From the sequence record NC_052653.1: a stretch of DNA of 64,000 bases, one strand, 5' to 3'. The DNA is from Escherichia phage vB_vPM_PD06. A model generated the notes under the pieces. The model was not told the DNA's origin and did no database searches. It saw nothing but the letters and a program-made list of their open reading frames with translations. Shown piece after piece: positions 3,830 through 64,000 of the stretch (position 1 is the stretch's first letter; every line of letters starts with the position of its first letter). The translations under genes were made by a program, and so were the position numbers.

Positions 3830-5947
3830 TTATATTAAACCATACACTACATTGTGTATTGTTAAACTGCCAATCGAGTTCCCAACATTAAAATTCACCT
3901 CAGCCTTGTATGCTCCTTGAGGGACTGAATCCACTAAAGCATAAAAATTGAATGTGTCGCCTACTGGGATGTTATACCCTATGGAATCCGCAACAGCATT
4001 TCCTTGCTGGTCCAGGAATCTAATTGACGCCAGGGTTGTTGTTAGATTTTTAGCCCAAAAACCAAGCTGAAAATAACGACCAGGCTCACAATCAATGATT
4101 GTTTGGGTGAAATTAGCTGCTGCCTCAGCTGATGGTACAGATAAAACAAAAGAAGTTGAAAACATTAAATCATTAGGAACATCGTTTGCTGTAGTAGCAG
4201 TGACAACTCCTGTTCCAGTTTGCGATAGTGTCCAGTTAGATGTGTTTAAAAACTGTCCTGAGCCATTACTGATGCTATTAATATAAGGGCTTACAATGCT
4301 CCCTAAATTCCAGTTACTTGTGATAAATCCTGCCCGTGGATAGCACCCTCTGGACATTACTTTTTTGCTCGCGCCACCTATCAACTGTCTTGTGGGAAAT
4401 CCAGTAGCAATCGTTGTATTCCCATAGAGGGATAACGAGCAATTATTTAGGCTAACAACCCCATCGCCGTTGCTAACAATAGGTACACTGGTATACCCGT
4501 CTGGGAGTAGTATCGTCGAATTACTGACGGTTAATCGTGAACTGCCCTCCACAGTAAACCCAACGAAACTCTGACCAGGTTGGTACTCAATGTTACCGTT
4601 TGTGAAAACCACTGTTGCGTTATCGGATAGCGCAACAGCAGGGTCAAAATATCCTGATTTTTTACCTGCTGGCAGAGAGCAGCCATCGAATATAAATTGA
4701 CCATTAACAAATGTGAAAGGTCCACCGTTGTCAACCATCCAACAATGATTAAATCTTATAACTTCACCGGAATTTGCTGGTGAATTGAAAATAACAGAAT
4801 TTGTAAAACTTCTGGACAACGCACATTTATCAAAAAGAATACGATATGCATTATCAAGAAACTCAATCCCGGCAGTTGAGATAAACCCACTATTAGAGAT
4901 TCTTAACTCTGATACTTCACCACTGGTAGAACCACCGATAGCCAATTTCCTGGAACCTTTCCCGACGAATGACACACCACTAATCAAAGAAGTTGCGTTA
5001 ATTGCATCTCTGTTAGTGTAATCAGCGCCTGTATTAATGATGGTTAGGTAGTAGTCACCGGTTACAGATGAAGATTCTGTTAAAGTACATTTATTTTTTC
5101 CAATAAGTGCGCCTTTTGCTATGTCGAAAATAATTGGTGTTGTTATCTCTCCTGAAACAGGGACTACACAGTCAAACCCGGCAGCGTTTATTGTGTTGAT
5201 GAATACCGCCAAATCTTCGGTTCCAGTATAACCAGCATCATACACATCCACGGAACCATTGAAGAATTTTCTTTTCCATACCACACCGTTTCCGGGGAAG
5301 GTAACAATATTGTCTATAGCTGTATCCGCGCTAACAGCTACCATAATACCACCACCAAAGTTAAAACCGCTCACATACGAATCAAGTATTATGGAATCAC
5401 CAATTGATCCTGATATTGATGATAACTCAGAAACTGATGATGCAGTTCCTATATAAGACAAGCCATTTGTTTTATTTAAATCACCCCTCAGGGTGGCATC
5501 ACCAACACTAGCCCACGCACTAGGACCAACACCACCGGTTGATGTAGGGGTTGAGTCAGCGGGAACAGCTTTAGGGAAAGCACCACCCCATGTATAGCAC
5601 TGTCCACCTGCAATATACCAAACAGCATCAGTATTATTATTTAATGTAGCACCATCCTCAAAGCTACCATCAACAAGTGTTAACCCCGCTTCAGCAAGAC
5701 TACGACGCCACTGTTCACGATCATTAAGAAGATTGTTATTCAACTCTTCCTGAACAGTATTACCATTTGAGGATTGTATTAAATCTGCTCCATCTGTATC
5801 TTTCAACTGGGTGGCTAAAACCACCCCAGTGTCAGTAAGAAAATTAGAAACTGTGCTTTTAACGGTCTTATCAGGTTGGTCTAAAACTAGGTAATCAGAA
5901 CCATTAACTTTTGATGTTTCCGGTAAATTAGTAATTGTAGTTGACAT
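3830..5947 (-). CDS. tailspike protein with N-terminal anchor motif and beta-helix-like repeat body (putative polysaccharide depolymerase)
   Basis: 705 aa; N-terminus MSTTITNLPETSKVNGSDYLVLDQ...TVKSTVSNF is a tailspike anchor-type motif; long Gly/Ser/Asn-rich repetitive core typical of parallel beta-helix enzymes. Confidence 0.55.
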   Translation of the reverse strand: MSTTITNLPETSKVNGSDYLVLDQPDKTVKSTVSNFLTDTGVVLATQLKDTDGADLIQSSNGNTVQEELNNNLLNDREQWRRSLAEAGLTLVDGSFEDGATLNNNTDAVWYIAGGQCYTWGGAFPKAVPADSTPTSTGGVGPSAWASVGDATLRGDLNKTNGLSYIGTASSVSELSSISGSIGDSIILDSYVSGFNFGGGIMVAVSADTAIDNIVTFPGNGVVWKRKFFNGSVDVYDAGYTGTEDLAVFINTINAAGFDCVVPVSGEITTPIIFDIAKGALIGKNKCTLTESSSVTGDYYLTIINTGADYTNRDAINATSLISGVSFVGKGSRKLAIGGSTSGEVSELRISNSGFISTAGIEFLDNAYRILFDKCALSRSFTNSVIFNSPANSGEVIRFNHCWMVDNGGPFTFVNGQFIFDGCSLPAGKKSGYFDPAVALSDNATVVFTNGNIEYQPGQSFVGFTVEGSSRLTVSNSTILLPDGYTSVPIVSNGDGVVSLNNCSLSLYGNTTIATGFPTRQLIGGASKKVMSRGCYPRAGFITSNWNLGSIVSPYINSISNGSGQFLNTSNWTLSQTGTGVVTATTANDVPNDLMFSTSFVLSVPSAEAAANFTQTIIDCEPGRYFQLGFWAKNLTTTLASIRFLDQQGNAVADSIGYNIPVGDTFNFYALVDSVPQGAYKAEVNFNVGNSIGSLTIHNVVYGLI

Positions 5948-56917: not shown

Positions 56918-57233
56918 TATTGCATGGCGTATGTTACAGGGTGCACCTTTTAATAAATGGGAAGAGGCTGTAGGAGAAGATCCTAGAATTGAAGAAGAAT
57001 TTGATGGAGATTTTAATTGGTTCTTACAAGAAGGTCTTGATTTAAGCCGTATCTCTCCTTTCTATGATGCTGATGAATCTTATTGCATATATGGCATTTA
57101 TTTAGAAGGTGGCGAAGGAAGTGTAGCTGTAGATCTTGAGCAACTAAATAAGAATGCAAAAGAAGCCTATGCACAACTTCTTGAAAAATATAACATTGAA
57201 ACGGAAACTATTATTTCTCAACACGTTTGGTAA
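56907..57233 (+). CDS. hypothetical protein
   Basis: GTG start with GAGGAGG upstream; 108 aa. Confidence 0.3.
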   Translation: MGVDIAWRMLQGAPFNKWEEAVGEDPRIEEEFDGDFNWFLQEGLDLSRISPFYDADESYCIYGIYLEGGEGSVAVDLEQLNKNAKEAYAQLLEKYNIETETIISQHVW

Positions 57234-57246
57234 GGAGGATAGTAGA

Positions 57247-57444
57247 ATGATGCTAGATCAACTGATCAATGCTCCTCGCGTAACAGTAAGTCCAAAAACA
57301 TTTGCATCACTTTTAGAAGATGCTAGAGAGGTTTATAACTTTACTGAAGAAGAGCTTCCTGTTCCTGTTGAAAAAGGTTCCAGATGGTTGTTTTATGAAG
57401 GTATTATTTTTACTGAAGGGAATAATTGGAAGGAGACTAAATGA
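57247..57444 (+). CDS. hypothetical protein
   Basis: ATG with AGGAGG RBS; 65 aa. Confidence 0.3.
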   Translation: MMLDQLINAPRVTVSPKTFASLLEDAREVYNFTEEELPVPVEKGSRWLFYEGIIFTEGNNWKETK

Positions 57445-58430
57445 AATACTTAGTAACAGGTGGTTTAGGCTTTATTGGAAGTGCGGTAGTTCGTTTCCTA
57501 GCTAAAAATACTAAGAATGATATTTACGTTATAGATAAATGGGGTTACGCTTCAGACCCTAGAAATTTATCAGAAACACCTAATGTAAAGTTTTGTCGTG
57601 TTGACTTGACAAATGCTCAGTTAACTGCTAAGATTGTGGCAGATGTTAACCCAGATTATATAATGCATCTTGCAGCAGAAAGTCACGTAGATAATTCAAT
57701 AGCATCACCGAGTGTTTTTATAAATTCAAATATTGTTGGAACATTTAATCTTCTAGAAGCTGTTCGTTTAATGGGAGATAAATCAAATCTTAAAATGTTT
57801 CATCATATTTCAACAGATGAAGTGTATGGTGATATGGAAGAAGGGGATTATCCGTTTACAGAACAGAATCCTTATAAACCAAGTAGTCCATATGCTGCAT
57901 CTAAAGCTGCAAGCGATCATTTGGTAAGAGCGTGGCATCGTACTTATGGTATTCCGACAGTTATAACAAATTGTTCAAATAATTTTGGAGCGTATCATCA
58001 TCCAGAAAAACTAATACCTAAAACGATAACAAATATCTTGATGCATAAACCAATCCCTGTTTATGGCAATGGTCTTCAAGTAAGAGACTGGCTATACGTT
58101 GACGATCACGCAGAAGCATTACACCTAGTAGTAACTAAAGGCAAATCTGGAGAAACATATAATATTGGGAGCAGAAACCCTAGAACTAATATTGATGTAA
58201 TCTATATGATTTGTGATTATATGGATGCGGTATATCCATCTGAAACAGATGCTTGTAGCCTCATTGAGATGGTTACAGATAGGCCTGGGCATGATCTAAG
58301 ATATGAAGTGAATCCTTATAAGATTGAAAAGGAATTAGGGTGGAAAGCTAAAGGCACATTTGAAGAAAAACTTTATTCAACCATTGATTGGTATGTAGAT
58401 AACAAAGAGTGGTGGGAAAATAAAGTTTAA
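57441..58430 (+). CDS. rmlB: dTDP-glucose 4,6-dehydratase
   Basis: 329 aa; N-terminal [14 protein letters not shown] Rossmann motif, [11 protein letters not shown] catalytic YxxxK. Confidence 0.75.
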
Positions 58431-58438
58431 GGAGGAGT

Positions 58439-59308
58439 ATGAAAGGTATTATCTTAGCAGGTGGTAGTGGAACAAGACTTTACCCAGTTACTAAAGGGGT
58501 TAGTAAACAACTATTACCAATTTATGATAAGCCTATGATTTATTATCCACTCTCTGTCCTAATGCTTTCTGGAATTAGGGAAATACTAATAATTACAACA
58601 CCAGAAGATCAAATTAATTTTGTAAATCTTCTAGGTGATGGTTCTTCTTTTGGTATTTCCCTACAGTATGCAATACAGGATAGTCCAAGAGGTTTAGCAG
58701 AAGCGTTTATTATTGGTGAGAACTTTATTGGTGAAGATTCTGTAGCACTTGTGCTAGGTGATAATTTATTCTTTGGTCAGAGTTTTGGTAGCATTTTAGA
58801 TTCTGCTAAAGAACATATTGAAAAGAATGGTGGAGCTAATATTTTTGGGTATCACGTAAATGATCCTGAAAGATTTGGTGTTGTTGAGTTTGATTCTGAA
58901 GGTACAGTGGTAAGTATTGAAGAAAAACCAAAAGCACCAAAAAGCAACTATGCAATTACAGGCTTGTACTTTTACGATAATTCTGTTATACAGAAAGCTA
59001 AAAGCGTTAAGCCTTCTGCTAGAGGGGAGTTAGAGATTACAGATATAAATGAGATGTACTGGAAAGAAAAGGCTTTACGTGTCTGTAAGCTAGGAAGAGG
59101 TTTCACTTGGCTGGATACAGGAACACATGAAAGTCTTATGGAAGCATCTCAATTTGTTCATGCAATAGAAAAGCAACAAGGTATGAAGGTTGCATGCCTA
59201 GAAGAGATTGCTTTTAAAAATGAATGGATTACTTTAGATTCTGTAAAAAGTTCTGGAGAGGTTTTAAGTAAAACAGACTACGGCAAGTATTTACTTAAAT
59301 TAAAATAA
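58439..59308 (+). CDS. rmlA: glucose-1-phosphate thymidylyltransferase
   Basis: 289 aa; N-terminal [18 protein letters not shown] signature. Confidence 0.75.
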
Positions 59309-59320
59309 GGGGGAGATTAA

Positions 59321-59875
59321 ATGATTCAAGCAACAAAAATCGAAGATTTGTTGATCATTCAACCTGACGTTTACGGGGATGAACGTGGTTTTTTCTTAGA
59401 AAGTTTTAATCAGGCTTTATATGATCAATACATAGGTAAACAAAACTTTGTCCAAGATAACCATTCACGTTCTATTCGAGGAGTTCTACGTGGGCTTCAT
59501 TTTCAAAAGAAAAACCCACAAGGGAAGTTAGTACGTTGTGTTCGTGGTGAAGTTTATGATGTTGCTGTAGATATTAGGGTTGGTAGTCCAACATTTGGAG
59601 AATGGGTAGGTGTTCTTTTATCTGAAAAGAATAAAACACAATTTTGGATTCCTCCTGGTTTCGCTCATGGCTTTGTTGTGATTAGCGACATTGCTGATTT
59701 TGAATATAAATGTACAGAATATTACGATCCGACTTCAGAGTGTAGTCTTGCGTGGAATGATCCAGATATCAATATAGATTGGGGTTTTGATTTAATCTTT
59801 AATGATATTAATTTTAAACCTATCTTGTCACAAAAAGATCAGGAAGCCAAAACACTAAAGGAGATCATATTTTGA
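59321..59875 (+). CDS. rmlC: dTDP-4-dehydrorhamnose 3,5-epimerase
   Basis: 184 aa; LRGLHFQ motif and cupin-like pattern; position between rmlA and rmlD. Confidence 0.65.
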   Translation: MIQATKIEDLLIIQPDVYGDERGFFLESFNQALYDQYIGKQNFVQDNHSRSIRGVLRGLHFQKKNPQGKLVRCVRGEVYDVAVDIRVGSPTFGEWVGVLLSEKNKTQFWIPPGFAHGFVVISDIADFEYKCTEYYDPTSECSLAWNDPDINIDWGFDLIFNDINFKPILSQKDQEAKTLKEIIF

Positions 59876-60702
59876 CAAAATTTTTAATCTTTGGTTCAAA
59901 AGGTCAATTAGGACAATCTTTGGCAAAAGTTGCACCAGAAGATGTTATTTTGATTGAAGCAAGTGATATAGACATTACCAACTTTAAAGATGTTATGAAT
60001 AGTCTTGTACAGCACGTGCCTGATGTTGTTGTGAATTGTGCGGCTTACACGGCAGTAGATAAAGCTGAAGAAGATGTTAACACCTGTATAAATGTTAATG
60101 CATACGGTGCAACAAACATTGCCAAAGCATGTAATGATTTACTGATACAGTTTGTACATATTTCAACAGACTATGTTTTTGATGGACATGTTGCTGGCAC
60201 AGAAGAGAGTAAAACAAACCCCTTGAACACCTACGGTTACAGTAAACAATTAGGTGAAACTTTAGTACAAGCAGTTTGTCCTACAGCACTTATTATCAGA
60301 ACAGCTTCTGTTTATAGTGAATTTGGACATAACTTTTTGAAAACTATGTTGGAACGCTACAACGGTGGTCAAAAAGAATTTAATGTAGTATGTGATCATT
60401 TATCATGTCCTACTTATGCACCTGATCTTGCAGAAACAATTTTTAAACTTGTAAAAGATGGTGTAAATAGTAAAATTGTACACTATGCAGGTGCAGATTA
60501 TATTTCTTGGTATGATTTTGCACGTAAGATATTTCTTGTTATAGATTTGTCTGTTACAGTTAATCCTGTATCTGCTTCAACCTATAATTCTAAAGCAGTC
60601 AGACCAGCAACATCTTATTTAAAAACAGATCCTACTTTAAATCCGCGAAGTGTTGATAGCGGTATTGTAAGAACTTTAACTATACTTTTAAACAAGGAGT
60701 GA
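59872..60702 (+). CDS. rmlD: dTDP-4-dehydrorhamnose reductase
   Basis: 276 aa; N-terminal FGSKGQLGQ Rossmann motif; overlaps rmlC stop. Confidence 0.65.
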   Translation: MTKFLIFGSKGQLGQSLAKVAPEDVILIEASDIDITNFKDVMNSLVQHVPDVVVNCAAYTAVDKAEEDVNTCINVNAYGATNIAKACNDLLIQFVHISTDYVFDGHVAGTEESKTNPLNTYGYSKQLGETLVQAVCPTALIIRTASVYSEFGHNFLKTMLERYNGGQKEFNVVCDHLSCPTYAPDLAETIFKLVKDGVNSKIVHYAGADYISWYDFARKIFLVIDLSVTVNPVSASTYNSKAVRPATSYLKTDPTLNPRSVDSGIVRTLTILLNKE

Positions 60703-61664: not shown

Positions 61665-62417
61665 ATGGGAAATAAAACCGCAAAGGCTCGTCGTCAATCA
61701 GCAGCCAATGATGACAAACGTGCCAGTCGTTATGCGGCTAAAGCAGTAGGAAATGATGATTACCGTCTTGATGAATTTACCCCTGTTGGGAATCAAGAAG
61801 CTATTGTAAGAAGCATGGTTTGGAATGATTTAACCATTGTTAATGCCCCAGCAGGAACAGGAAAAACGACAACAGCACTATGGAAAGCATTGCAAATGCT
61901 TAAAGCTGGTGACTTCAGAAAGTTGATTTTCCTTAAAAACCCGACAGAAGTAGGTGATGACCAAATTGGTTTCTTATCTGGAGATAAGACTGATAAACTA
62001 GCAGCACACTACGAGTCAACTAAAAGAATTTTCCAACAGTTTATGACTGCAAATAAATTGGAAAACGATATTGCAAGTGGCAAAATTGAACTTAATATTC
62101 CGAACTATGCACTAGGTGCTACGTGGGATAACAGCATTATTCTTATTGATGAAGTTCAACTTATGTCACCAAACACAGTAAAACTTCTCCTTGAGCGAGC
62201 AGGTCTTAATACACGTATTGTCATTATGGGCGATGTTAATCAAACATATGCAATTAAACGAAGAGCTAACGGGTTAGGTGATTTGTTAGATCGTGTTGTT
62301 CCTATTAACGAAGAAGGAGAAAGGGAAGCTATTGTAGATTTTATTGGTTATGTTGAAATGACAACTGCTGATAACCAACGTTCCCGTTTGTCTCAGTTCA
62401 TCACGGAAGTATATTAA
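61665..62417 (+). CDS. phoH: PhoH-like ATPase
   Basis: 250 aa; Walker A NAPAGTGKTTTAL, DEVQ Walker B-like. Confidence 0.65.
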   Translation: MGNKTAKARRQSAANDDKRASRYAAKAVGNDDYRLDEFTPVGNQEAIVRSMVWNDLTIVNAPAGTGKTTTALWKALQMLKAGDFRKLIFLKNPTEVGDDQIGFLSGDKTDKLAAHYESTKRIFQQFMTANKLENDIASGKIELNIPNYALGATWDNSIILIDEVQLMSPNTVKLLLERAGLNTRIVIMGDVNQTYAIKRRANGLGDLLDRVVPINEEGEREAIVDFIGYVEMTTADNQRSRLSQFITEVY

Positions 62418-62453
62418 TAATTACAAGGCAAGGATGCCTATTATGGAGGTTAA

Positions 62454-62948
62454 ATGACGCTAATTGAGATTGATCGCAATGGTATTGATGAATGCTATCA
62501 AGCTGGCTTAGTTAAGCCGAATGAGTTTAGACAGATTTATATTGACAAGATTGAAAAAGAAATATCTCTTCGTTTAGAGAACATGACAACTTTGCAAAAA
62601 GTTCAGATGTTTTTTAGTTGGTTAAAAGGAGAGGATTGGCTAACTAAATATTACCAGGAATTATCTGATAGTCAAGAAGGCTTGTTTGAGTGTATAATAA
62701 ATGTAGCTGGGTCTAATTCAGAATTACTCCTGATTGATGAAGAAGATTCTAAACTTCTTTTTCTTAGCAGTATCTTTCACAAGAAATCTATGTTAGTAAG
62801 AAATTGCAGTGATTTACTAAATCATCCACTAACAAGAACCAATAAAATTCTTGTGGATAAAGAAACACTAAGAGCTATTGATTACCTACGTAAGTATGTA
62901 AGCGGTGGTAAAGCAGTCCTTAAAACACTACAGGAGGAAGTACAATGA
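62454..62948 (+). CDS. hypothetical protein
   Basis: 164 aa ORF. Confidence 0.4.
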   Translation: MTLIEIDRNGIDECYQAGLVKPNEFRQIYIDKIEKEISLRLENMTTLQKVQMFFSWLKGEDWLTKYYQELSDSQEGLFECIINVAGSNSELLLIDEEDSKLLFLSSIFHKKSMLVRNCSDLLNHPLTRTNKILVDKETLRAIDYLRKYVSGGKAVLKTLQEEVQ

Positions 62949-63598
62949 CAACAATTATTGCAACACATAACAAAATTCTATCTGACGGTAAAGTAACAGT
63001 AGGTAATCGAGTAGACACTTTAAATTTCAAGAAAGTGCGTAAAATTGGGGATTACCTTGTTGGTGGTGCAGGACGTCTGTCTTCTATCCTGACTTTCTTT
63101 TCTTGGTTTGAACAAAACTTACAGTGCCAGGCAGCACAAGAGACAATCCCAGGTTTGGTGATCCAATCAGACCCTGATAAAGAAGATGAAGAGTTTGTGG
63201 CATTGGTTGTTCACCCAGACGGTAAAATTTATATGCACGAGGGTAATAATCCAACGCGAGCATATCCTTTAACTGAAGATTACTATGCTGTTGGTAGTGG
63301 GGCAGATTTTGCTTTAGCAGCTTTAGACGCTGGGGCAACCCCAGAAGAAGCGATGGAAGTTGCAAAACTACGAGATGCTTTTTCAGGCGGTGAAACTTTT
63401 GTTGAAGAGATCGAAGAACAACTGGAGCTAACAGCGGAAGATATTCTGAACTTCAGCAAGGAGCAACTAATTAGTATGCTGTTGACTGGTGATCCTGATA
63501 GTGATGAAGCTGAAAGTATTTTAGCAGAAATGAAAGAATCACAAGAAAAAGTATTGACAGTCTCTGAAAAACTTGATAAAGTATCCTCTGATAATTAA
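62945..63598 (+). CDS. HslV-like Ntn-hydrolase peptidase with acidic C-terminal extension
   Basis: 217 aa; MTTIIATHN (Thr after Met), VTVGNRVDTLNFKKVRKIGDYLVGGAG and AVGSGADFALAA resemble E. coli HslV segments. Confidence 0.5.
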   Translation: MTTIIATHNKILSDGKVTVGNRVDTLNFKKVRKIGDYLVGGAGRLSSILTFFSWFEQNLQCQAAQETIPGLVIQSDPDKEDEEFVALVVHPDGKIYMHEGNNPTRAYPLTEDYYAVGSGADFALAALDAGATPEEAMEVAKLRDAFSGGETFVEEIEEQLELTAEDILNFSKEQLISMLLTGDPDSDEAESILAEMKESQEKVLTVSEKLDKVSSDN

Positions 63599-63639
63599 TC
63601 TAACATAAACCCCCTCACGGGGGTTATTAGGAGGAGATA

Positions 63640-64000
63640 TGTTACCAGTACCTGTAATCTTTGTAGAAAAAGCCTACTACTACTCTTTAGAACAAAACTG
63701 TAAAAGGGCTAAAAATTTTATTGAAAGTTTAGCAGAACAGCGTTACACTGTATCTAAAAAGGGATGGTTCAGAACTTCAAAATATCTAGTCAACCCTTTC
63801 GGAGAAGTTCGTGTGTTGTACGGCAACACAGAAAATATCTTAGAAAGAATGTTAGAACTAGATAGGATCTCCTCCTGTGATTATCAACTGTTGAAATTTT
63901 ACGATGTGTCAGAAAGCGTTAAAAACTTTCTTGACGACTTATGTAAACGAAAAACAGAAGAAGATACAATACCAGTATCTATGGAAGAATTAACGTTCTT
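63640..64000 (+). CDS. hypothetical protein, partial (runs off window end)
   Basis: ATG at 63640 with AGGAGG RBS; open to position 64000. Confidence 0.35.

Follow-up and report, generated by a model that had tools for sequence, protein, structure and literature searches.

The gene at positions 62945..63598 on the plus strand of the 64-kb window analyzed here, a stretch of the genome of Escherichia phage vB_vPM_PD06 (NC_052653.1), encodes a protein of 217 amino acid residues (ATG start, stop codon included in the coordinates) which, with high confidence, is a proteasome-like protein of the PPH type. The gene is defined by the list of open reading frames (ORFs), by matches to phrog_1040 and PF00227, and by 100% identical annotated genes in other phages. 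The picture that we favor, with moderate confidence when taken as a whole, is that of an ATPase-independent, ring-forming N-terminal-threonine peptidase of PPH type, with an acidic entrance and an outward-pointing tail, which would fulfill an accessory function in the infected cell.

Fold and active site

The protein matched the PHROG family phrog_1040, "peptidase HslV family," with E=1.5e-62 and the Pfam family Proteasome (PF00227) with 24.4 bits, above the gathering score of 22.4, and its best sequence matches in the PDB were HslV chains (E=2e-7 to 6e-6). The AlphaFold2 model, obtained with 39 homologs, had a mean predicted local distance difference test (pLDDT) value of 84, with most of the core above 90. 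In the Foldseek search with this model, a probability of 1.00 was assigned to 20S beta subunits, HslV, and the Betaproteobacteria proteasome homolog (BPH); the template modeling (TM) score was 0.65–0.69 for HslV chains, to which it was normalized, and 20S beta subunits, and lower, 0.54–0.55, for BPH. The modeled fold is the N-terminal nucleophile (Ntn) alpha-beta-beta-alpha sandwich of proteasome beta subunits and HslV, and the likeness of the sequence to proteasome-type proteins is far above chance. The hidden Markov model (HMM) search and structure prediction proposed in the initial annotation of this ORF were thus carried out, with PF00227 above its gathering score and an Ntn proteasome fold, not a non-Ntn fold, as the outcome.

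Residue conservation was read from an alignment of the 39 homologs, which are 40–79% identical to the peptidase, and all statements on invariance refer to this set. M1, T2, T3, D14, K30, G40-G41-A42-G43, S118, and G119 are invariant and align with Thr1, Asp17, Lys33, the oxyanion glycine region, and Ser124 of HslV; D81 and F52 are likewise invariant. The superfamily constellation of Asp17, Lys33, oxyanion Gly47, and Ser129 has its equivalents in D14, K30, G43 of the GGAG segment, and S118 of the GSG segment. On the plus strand of the window, Thr2, which by its invariance and its alignment to HslV Thr1 is predicted to serve as the N-terminal nucleophile after the loss of Met1, has its codon at 62948..62950. 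This codon is followed by a segment (62984..63034) with the codons of Asp14 (62984–62986) and Lys30 (63032–63034), by the GGAG oxyanion-hole glycine region (residues 40–43, 63062..63073), and by GSG (residues 117–119, 63293..63301), in which Ser118 corresponds to HslV Ser124 and proteasome Ser129. The initial annotation had singled out the Thr-after-Met start and the GGAG and GSG segments of ORF 62945–63598, and all three (MTT, GGAG, and GSG) proved to be invariant.

The ratio of nonsynonymous to synonymous substitution rates (dN/dS) of the core codons is about 0.12–0.19 versus relatives, so the active site is maintained, under strong purifying selection. Because synonymous sites are saturated at the distances available, only the qualitative contrast between this core range, the proximal tail (<1), and the distal tail (~1) is usable. 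The protein has no propeptide and begins at MTT, its N-terminus reading MTTIIA, and the core ends with ...SGGETFVEEI near residue 156. Methionine aminopeptidase removes Met1 when the second residue is small, so Thr2 is expected as the free N-terminus; cleavage of Met1 would thereby release it as the N-terminal nucleophile.

Distinction from HslV and probable assignment to the PPH type

Judged by its sequence and its model, the peptidase is not a bona fide HslV. The HslV equivalog models of NCBIfam were both missed, NF003964 with 34.5 bits (cut-off 137) and TIGR03692 with 32.2 bits (cut-off 157.75). AlphaFold2 predicted one long helix, H1, at residues 45–67, followed by a coil at residues 68–83 (IPGLVIQSDPDKEDEE) and then by a strand, at the place where HslV has helix H2. 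The 4-residue S1/S2 insertion of HslV and part of its H3-H4 segment are also missing. According to the model and to the hhalign alignment, the acidic loop SDPDKEDEE (residues 75–83, 63167..63193, plus strand) replaces the end of H2 and the pore loop of HslV. The basic cluster Arg86/Arg89/Lys90 at the pore entrance is needed for the activity of HslV (PMC5777263), and hhalign places these three positions opposite a gap, Glu82, and Glu83, respectively, inside the acidic stretch DPDKEDEE. The earlier description of the protein as HslV-like therefore holds insofar as it belongs to the proteasome/HslV Ntn superfamily with a complete catalytic set, but not in the sense of a true HslV, since the equivalog models are missed by about 100 bits, H2 is absent, and the pore is acidic.

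The PPH proteins have been described as homologs of about 140 residues that lack H2 and occur in Caudovirales (Fuchs, Alva and Lupas 2021; PMC8665760). In the same work, no AAA+ protein was found to co-occur with these families (PPH/RPC), and RPC, which is related to PPH and has a C-terminal extension, was known only from proteobacteria. From the defining features as described, and not by clustering, we infer that the peptidase fits the PPH class in a broad sense. In a search of 1.84 billion representative proteins with the family profile, 57 representatives were obtained at E<=1e-30, 55 of them with a length of 183–350 aa, which is enough for a tail; of the two that are shorter, one is a partial match of 165 aa and the other a protein of 167 aa whose acidic end is very short. 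The next tier consisted of hundreds of 137–155-aa proteins starting with MTTIA..., at E~1e-18 to 1e-22. On a common scale, the MTTIA... proteins of about 140 aa reached 81–107 bits, and E. coli HslV 42 bits.

HslU as a possible partner

As stated in the initial annotation, the window carries no HslU: a tblastn search with E. coli HslU against the 64-kb window gave no homolog (best E=2.2). In the tblastn search with HslU of 50,697 phage records, matches came from jumbo phages of Erwinia, Salmonella, and Pseudomonas, as well as from some records that look like contaminants. Only 4 of the records with HslU-like matches are labeled "Escherichia," against at least 43 near-identical Escherichia-labeled records of Justusliebigvirus, the phi92-like group considered below, so these at least 43 records cannot all carry HslU. 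Judged by these matches, HslU is probably absent from the Justusliebigvirus phages. HslV without HslU has also been described in a paper on jumbo phages (PMC7823757).

HslU is always supplied by the host cell, and the initial annotation had suggested that the phage protein might hijack it; phage rings would then dock on E. coli HslU hexamers as the unfoldase, and ATP-dependent degradation would be redirected to substrates chosen by the phage. The closest solved relative by sequence is indeed HslV, with the E-values given above, and helix H1, which bears positions of the HslU pocket, is well conserved. In HslV, the pocket for HslU's C-terminal tail is formed by Phe54/Phe57 of H1, Ala79/Lys80 of H2, and Gln114 (PMC6429459). 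Only the H1 positions are kept in the phage peptidase, F54 as L49 and F57 as the invariant F52, whereas H2 with Ala79/Lys80 is absent from the model and Gln114 is replaced by the variable P108. HslV Lys28, to which Sousa and co-workers are said to have attributed, in 2000, a role in binding the C-terminus of HslU, is replaced by the variable Thr25. Since part of the docking pocket is absent or unconserved, hijacking of host HslU is disfavored. The charge reversal of the basic pore cluster and the failure of the HslV equivalog models speak in the same direction, as do the homologs from Vibrio, Aeromonas, and Shewanella phages, which combine the same core with very different tails. Moreover, BPH, an acidic homolog without an unfoldase, is a descendant of HslV that has lost HslU dependence (PMC5777263). 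Taken together, the use of host HslU by the phage peptidase is regarded as unlikely.

The C-terminal extension

The acidic C-terminal extension of roughly 60 residues mentioned in the initial annotation was delimited by composition and conservation to 61 residues (157–217; 63413..63595, plus strand), with 17 D/E versus 5 K/R and a net charge of -12. It is acidic overall but not uniformly so, and three parts can be distinguished. An acidic linker (residues 157–162) leads into a conserved motif at about residues 160–182 (63422..63490, plus strand), which reads L.LT.E....(F)(S/T)(K/R)E(E/Q)L(I/L)..(L)(L).G in the family and L.LT.E....FSKEQLI..LL.G in the peptidase itself. AlphaFold2 predicted two helices in this motif, at residues 164–169 and 172–181, with pLDDT values of 72–79. 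The motif is recognizable in homologs of 40–45% identity and in the shorter relatives P0094, P0100, and P0103; in comparison with phage ESCO5, the proportion of nonsynonymous differences (pN) in it is 0.33 and that of synonymous differences (pS) 0.90. The third part, residues 184–217, is essentially unconstrained in sequence (pN ~ pS), and it is this distal part alone that fits the description of a variable acidic tail: it is acidic in 39 of the 39 homologs, with net charges from -2 to -27.

A Pfam scan of the tail and of the longer tails of homologs gave only sub-threshold matches, the best being Rho_N in a single homolog (E=0.065). In some homologs, a Cys-rich module ending in KWRLHNA, or an ending of the type "LGVKY...K..L," HeH/Rho_N-like (E=0.065, not significant), is located C-terminal to the tail motif. 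Homologs with appended C-terminal domains are P0061, P0063, P0065, P0069, and P0083; P0073, P0076, and P0086; and L003:5001–5831.

Residues 174–180 of the tail (QLISMLL) loosely resemble the C-terminal activator of HslU, EDLSRFIL. The tail helix was considered as a mimic of this activator and rejected, being kept only as a low-probability idea: the strict pattern was present in 4 of the 39 homologs, and the key aromatic position is not conserved. In the window, the strict pattern is rare, with 2 matches in 21.5k aa.

Gene neighborhood

By inspection of the sequence, a Shine-Dalgarno sequence, AGGAGG (62932..62937, plus strand), is located 7 nt 5' of the peptidase ATG, and this ATG shares the tetranucleotide ATGA (62945–62948) with the TGA stop codon of the upstream ORF X (62454..62948, plus strand; 164 aa, phrog_14834), which is predicted to be all-alpha and to be translationally coupled to the peptidase gene. 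A PhoH-like ATPase gene (61665..62417, plus strand; PF02562, E=1.4e-35) precedes ORF X and is, by synteny, the first gene of a PhoH-X-peptidase block. Directly 3' of the peptidase stop codon, inspection revealed a GC hairpin with a perfect stem, CCCCC-TCAC-GGGGG (63610..63623, plus strand), just 5' of the AGGAGG/ATG of the next gene (63629–63641); the hairpin has no T-run and was not called in the terminator scan.

The order of PhoH, X (about 160 aa), and peptidase was found in five loci, namely the window, Phapecoctavirus ESCO5, and three metagenomic contigs. In the metagenomic contigs, the peptidase is 45–50% identical to the query, and X is 34–38% identical and is recovered by its own HMM at 1e-31 to 1e-42. 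X stands directly 5' of the peptidase gene in L005, L007, L008, and L009. The arrangement PhoH-ORF-peptidase recurs in two more loci, those of Vibrio phage qdvp001 and Aeromonas phage 4L372D.

The AlphaFold2 model of ORF X is all-alpha with a pLDDT of 93, and in a Foldseek search of it against the PDB no match had an E-value below 0.17. ORF X had no match in Pfam, NCBIfam, or PADLOC, and PADLOC gave no defense or anti-defense match for either the peptidase or X. The MTLIEI start of X, its FFSW and SGG motifs, and the two adjacent phrog_1040 genes of Aeromonas phage 4L372D prompted the idea that X might be a diverged, inactive proteasome paralog forming an alpha/beta-like pair with the peptidase; this was rejected, with an hhalign probability of 0.13 and an all-alpha model. 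The adjacent phrog_1040 genes of phage 4L372D (locus L004) are located at 4432–4983 and 5001–5885, and the product of the upstream copy is a divergent protein of 183 aa that starts with TCIIAL and scores 7.7 bits to the family profile and E=1e-25 to the PHROG.

At a larger scale, the peptidase gene lies inside a long same-strand metabolic and auxiliary block that comprises genes for thymidylate synthase, NrdAB, a dTDP-rhamnose pathway, glutaredoxin, a T4-type lysozyme, and PhoH. Both the head and the tail modules are encoded on the other strand, at a large distance from it. The dTDP-rhamnose-type pathway (RmlA/B/C/D-like) occupies positions ~57000–60702 of the plus strand, with an ORF at 59872–60702, just 5' of the glutaredoxin and lysozyme genes; modification of DNA or of a surface glycan are possibilities for its role.

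A natural deletion in the PhoH-X-peptidase block

The RefSeq record NC_052663.1 of phage VEcB lacks the sequence corresponding to window positions 62009–63130, a deletion of 1,122 bp with 8 bp of microhomology at the junction. The deletion takes away the C-terminal half of PhoH, all of X, and Thr2, Asp14, Lys30, and GGAG of the peptidase. It leaves an in-frame fusion, PhoH(1–114)::peptidase(63–217), at 2165–2968 of the VEcB locus (L010), which is annotated as "peptidase HslV family." If the deletion is real, the PhoH-X-peptidase block is non-essential for propagation, and the record suggests that the peptidase gene is dispensable. A non-essential block fits an accessory role and argues against head maturation.

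Proposed mode of action and alternatives

In the mechanism that we infer, which extends to methionine removal, oligomerization, peptidase activity, substrate bias, the role of the tail, and its partner, the methionine aminopeptidase of the host would remove Met1 and leave Thr2 as the free nucleophile, and the subunits would assemble into a ring-shaped, self-compartmentalizing peptidase. Such a ring could act, in the infected cell, on polypeptides that are unfolded or loosely folded and would need no dedicated AAA+ unfoldase for their cleavage, and the acidic pore loop DPDKEDEE together with the acidic tail may bias it toward basic substrates. The C-terminus is expected to point away from the ring, as in proteasome homologs, so the two-helix motif would most likely serve for docking or regulation. 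Protein X, all-alpha and co-conserved, is, as a conjecture, the candidate docking partner of this motif, and the distal tail may act as a disordered acidic spacer. The peptidase as a whole would have an accessory, non-essential function.

Several points weigh against this picture. Peptidase activity is not guaranteed, because the nearest relative that lacks an unfoldase and has solved structures, BPH, is inert in standard peptidase assays (PMC5777263). Ring formation without H2 is an assumption, and several of the new proteasome homologs may not form closed barrels (PMC8665760). The PPH assignment rests on length, the missing H2, and phage origin. The ORFs in the X slot of qdvp001 and 4L372D have no detectable similarity to X, and the PhoH-X-peptidase synteny may stem from the common descent of related myoviruses and not from a functional coupling. 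Finally, a second VEcB record, OZ035773.1, is intact, and the deletion in the first may have arisen in the laboratory or, with lower probability, through an error in the assembly.

Besides the use of host HslU, considered above, a non-degradative role has to be weighed against the proposed ring-forming peptidase. The protein could be an Ntn enzyme that catalyzes a different reaction, such as site-specific processing, connectase-like transpeptidation/ligation, or amidase activity, or else a catalytically silent assembly or decoy protein. The proteasome-like family does include the ligase connectase as well as BPH, inert on standard substrates. The compact fold without H2 might leave barrels unclosed (PMC8665760), and the conserved tail motif and the partner-like X suggest specific protein-protein recognition. 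However, every residue of the proteolytic set is invariant, the oxyanion Gly and the Thr1-holding Ser among them, the connectase-type S3/S4 insertion is absent, and the nearest solved relatives are all peptidases, so that a non-degradative role is considered quite improbable. A more elaborate version of the proteolytic model, in which the PhoH-X-peptidase block would be an unfoldase-free phage proteolytic machine, the tail helix KEQLISMLL would plug an inter-subunit pocket and activate the ring in cis, and X would be an adaptor or inhibitor that selects basic host proteins for destruction, is thought very unlikely.

Head maturation was the last alternative. The lambda-like head module of the window (22488–29366, minus strand) has an E-type major capsid protein (MCP) and a gpD-like decoration protein, with TerL, portal, and methyltransferase genes also present, and no recognizable prohead protease was found in it. 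Prohead proteases use C-terminal targeting segments, which is a point in favor of a role for the tail in carrying the peptidase into procapsids for removal of the scaffold; at the same time, we know of no prohead protease with a proteasome fold. Such a role is extremely doubtful, since the gene is separated from the head module by about 35 kb and stands on the opposite strand among metabolic genes, its catalytic half is gone in the VEcB record, lambda-E-like capsids can form on scaffolds that are released intact, and the description of the phi92 virion structure lists no such protein, no protease, and no MCP cleavage (PMC13450770). The usual protease/scaffold slot of the head module is occupied by a gene for a 371-aa protein of phrog_2970 (23922–25037).

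Distribution and significance

The region is 98–99.4% identical to that of more than 50 phi92-like E. coli myoviruses (Justusliebigvirus, Stephanstirmvirinae). Phages with 100% identical copies of the protein include PHB05, W22, alia, and PaulScherrer, and the labels given to identical copies range from "peptidase HslV family" or "HslV family peptidase" to "putative 20S proteasome," "putative proteasome component," and "ATP-dependent protease." Homologs were found in 164 phage records, with identities of ~71% in Phapecoctavirus, ~50% in Klebsiella phages, and 33–37% in Vibrio, Aeromonas, and Shewanella phages. Two records named "Campylobacter phage A150/A145" (MG065639.1, MG065645.1) are 98.4% identical to the region; probably the host was mislabeled, or else the preparations were contaminated.

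Annotations of the gene and of its family already existed, and orphan phage proteasome homologs as a class were published in 2021, so no new kind of element is described here; a search of the accessible literature turned up no experiments on phage HslV/PPH proteins. What is added is the distinction between HslV and PPH, the charge-reversed pore, the tail motif, the PhoH-X-peptidase block, and the natural deletion, the last four of which offer handles for experiments. Phage proteasome homologs are widespread, as follows from the 164 phage records of this family and from the 46 BFVD cluster representatives that share the proteasome fold (E<=1e-3). Moreover, the phages that carry this peptidase are well studied and easily grown (phi92 and its relatives in the BASEL collection) and infect K-12, and both a deletion variant and a clean hslU/hslV background can be used. 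They could therefore be a convenient system for establishing the role of a viral proteasome homolog and whether it works without an unfoldase.

Comparison with known systems

Prohead proteases have an assemblin or ClpP-type serine fold and are encoded in the head module, whereas the phage peptidase has the proteasome fold and is encoded elsewhere. Other phage proteins with the proteasome fold, such as the "proteasome subunit beta" of Caulobacter phage CcrBL9, the "Ntn hydrolase domain protein" of CcrColossus, and the HslV-like proteins of jumbo phages, are mostly tail-less and 130–190 aa long. Some Erwinia and Salmonella jumbo phages also carry HslU-like genes, unlike the Justusliebigvirus group.

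With HslV (ClpQ), the phage peptidase shares the fold, the Thr1/Asp17/Lys33/Gly/Ser124 constellation, and the Met-Thr start without a propeptide. However, the identity is only ~26–28% over 125 residues, HslV has no acidic tail, and the phage peptidase has no accompanying hslU gene, no H2, and an acidic instead of a basic pore. BPH resembles it in the lack of a partner unfoldase, the strongly acidic pore region, and the intact catalytic residues, but BPH is a cellular protein that assembles into tetradecamers, keeps H2, has a pore loop that is long, and carries no tail at its C-terminus.

For RPC, a domain added at the C-terminus of a PPH-like core has been described, from proteobacteria only; the peptidase studied here has a C-terminal extension, but its family is phage-borne. 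With PPH, the peptidase has in common that it is a phage-borne group-I homolog without a propeptide, with a compact core that lacks H2 and S12/H5, and with no associated AAA+ gene. It differs from PPH in the length of the core (~156 aa versus ~140) and of the whole protein (217 aa), in the longer acidic loop at the H2 site, and in the 61-residue tail with its two-helix motif.

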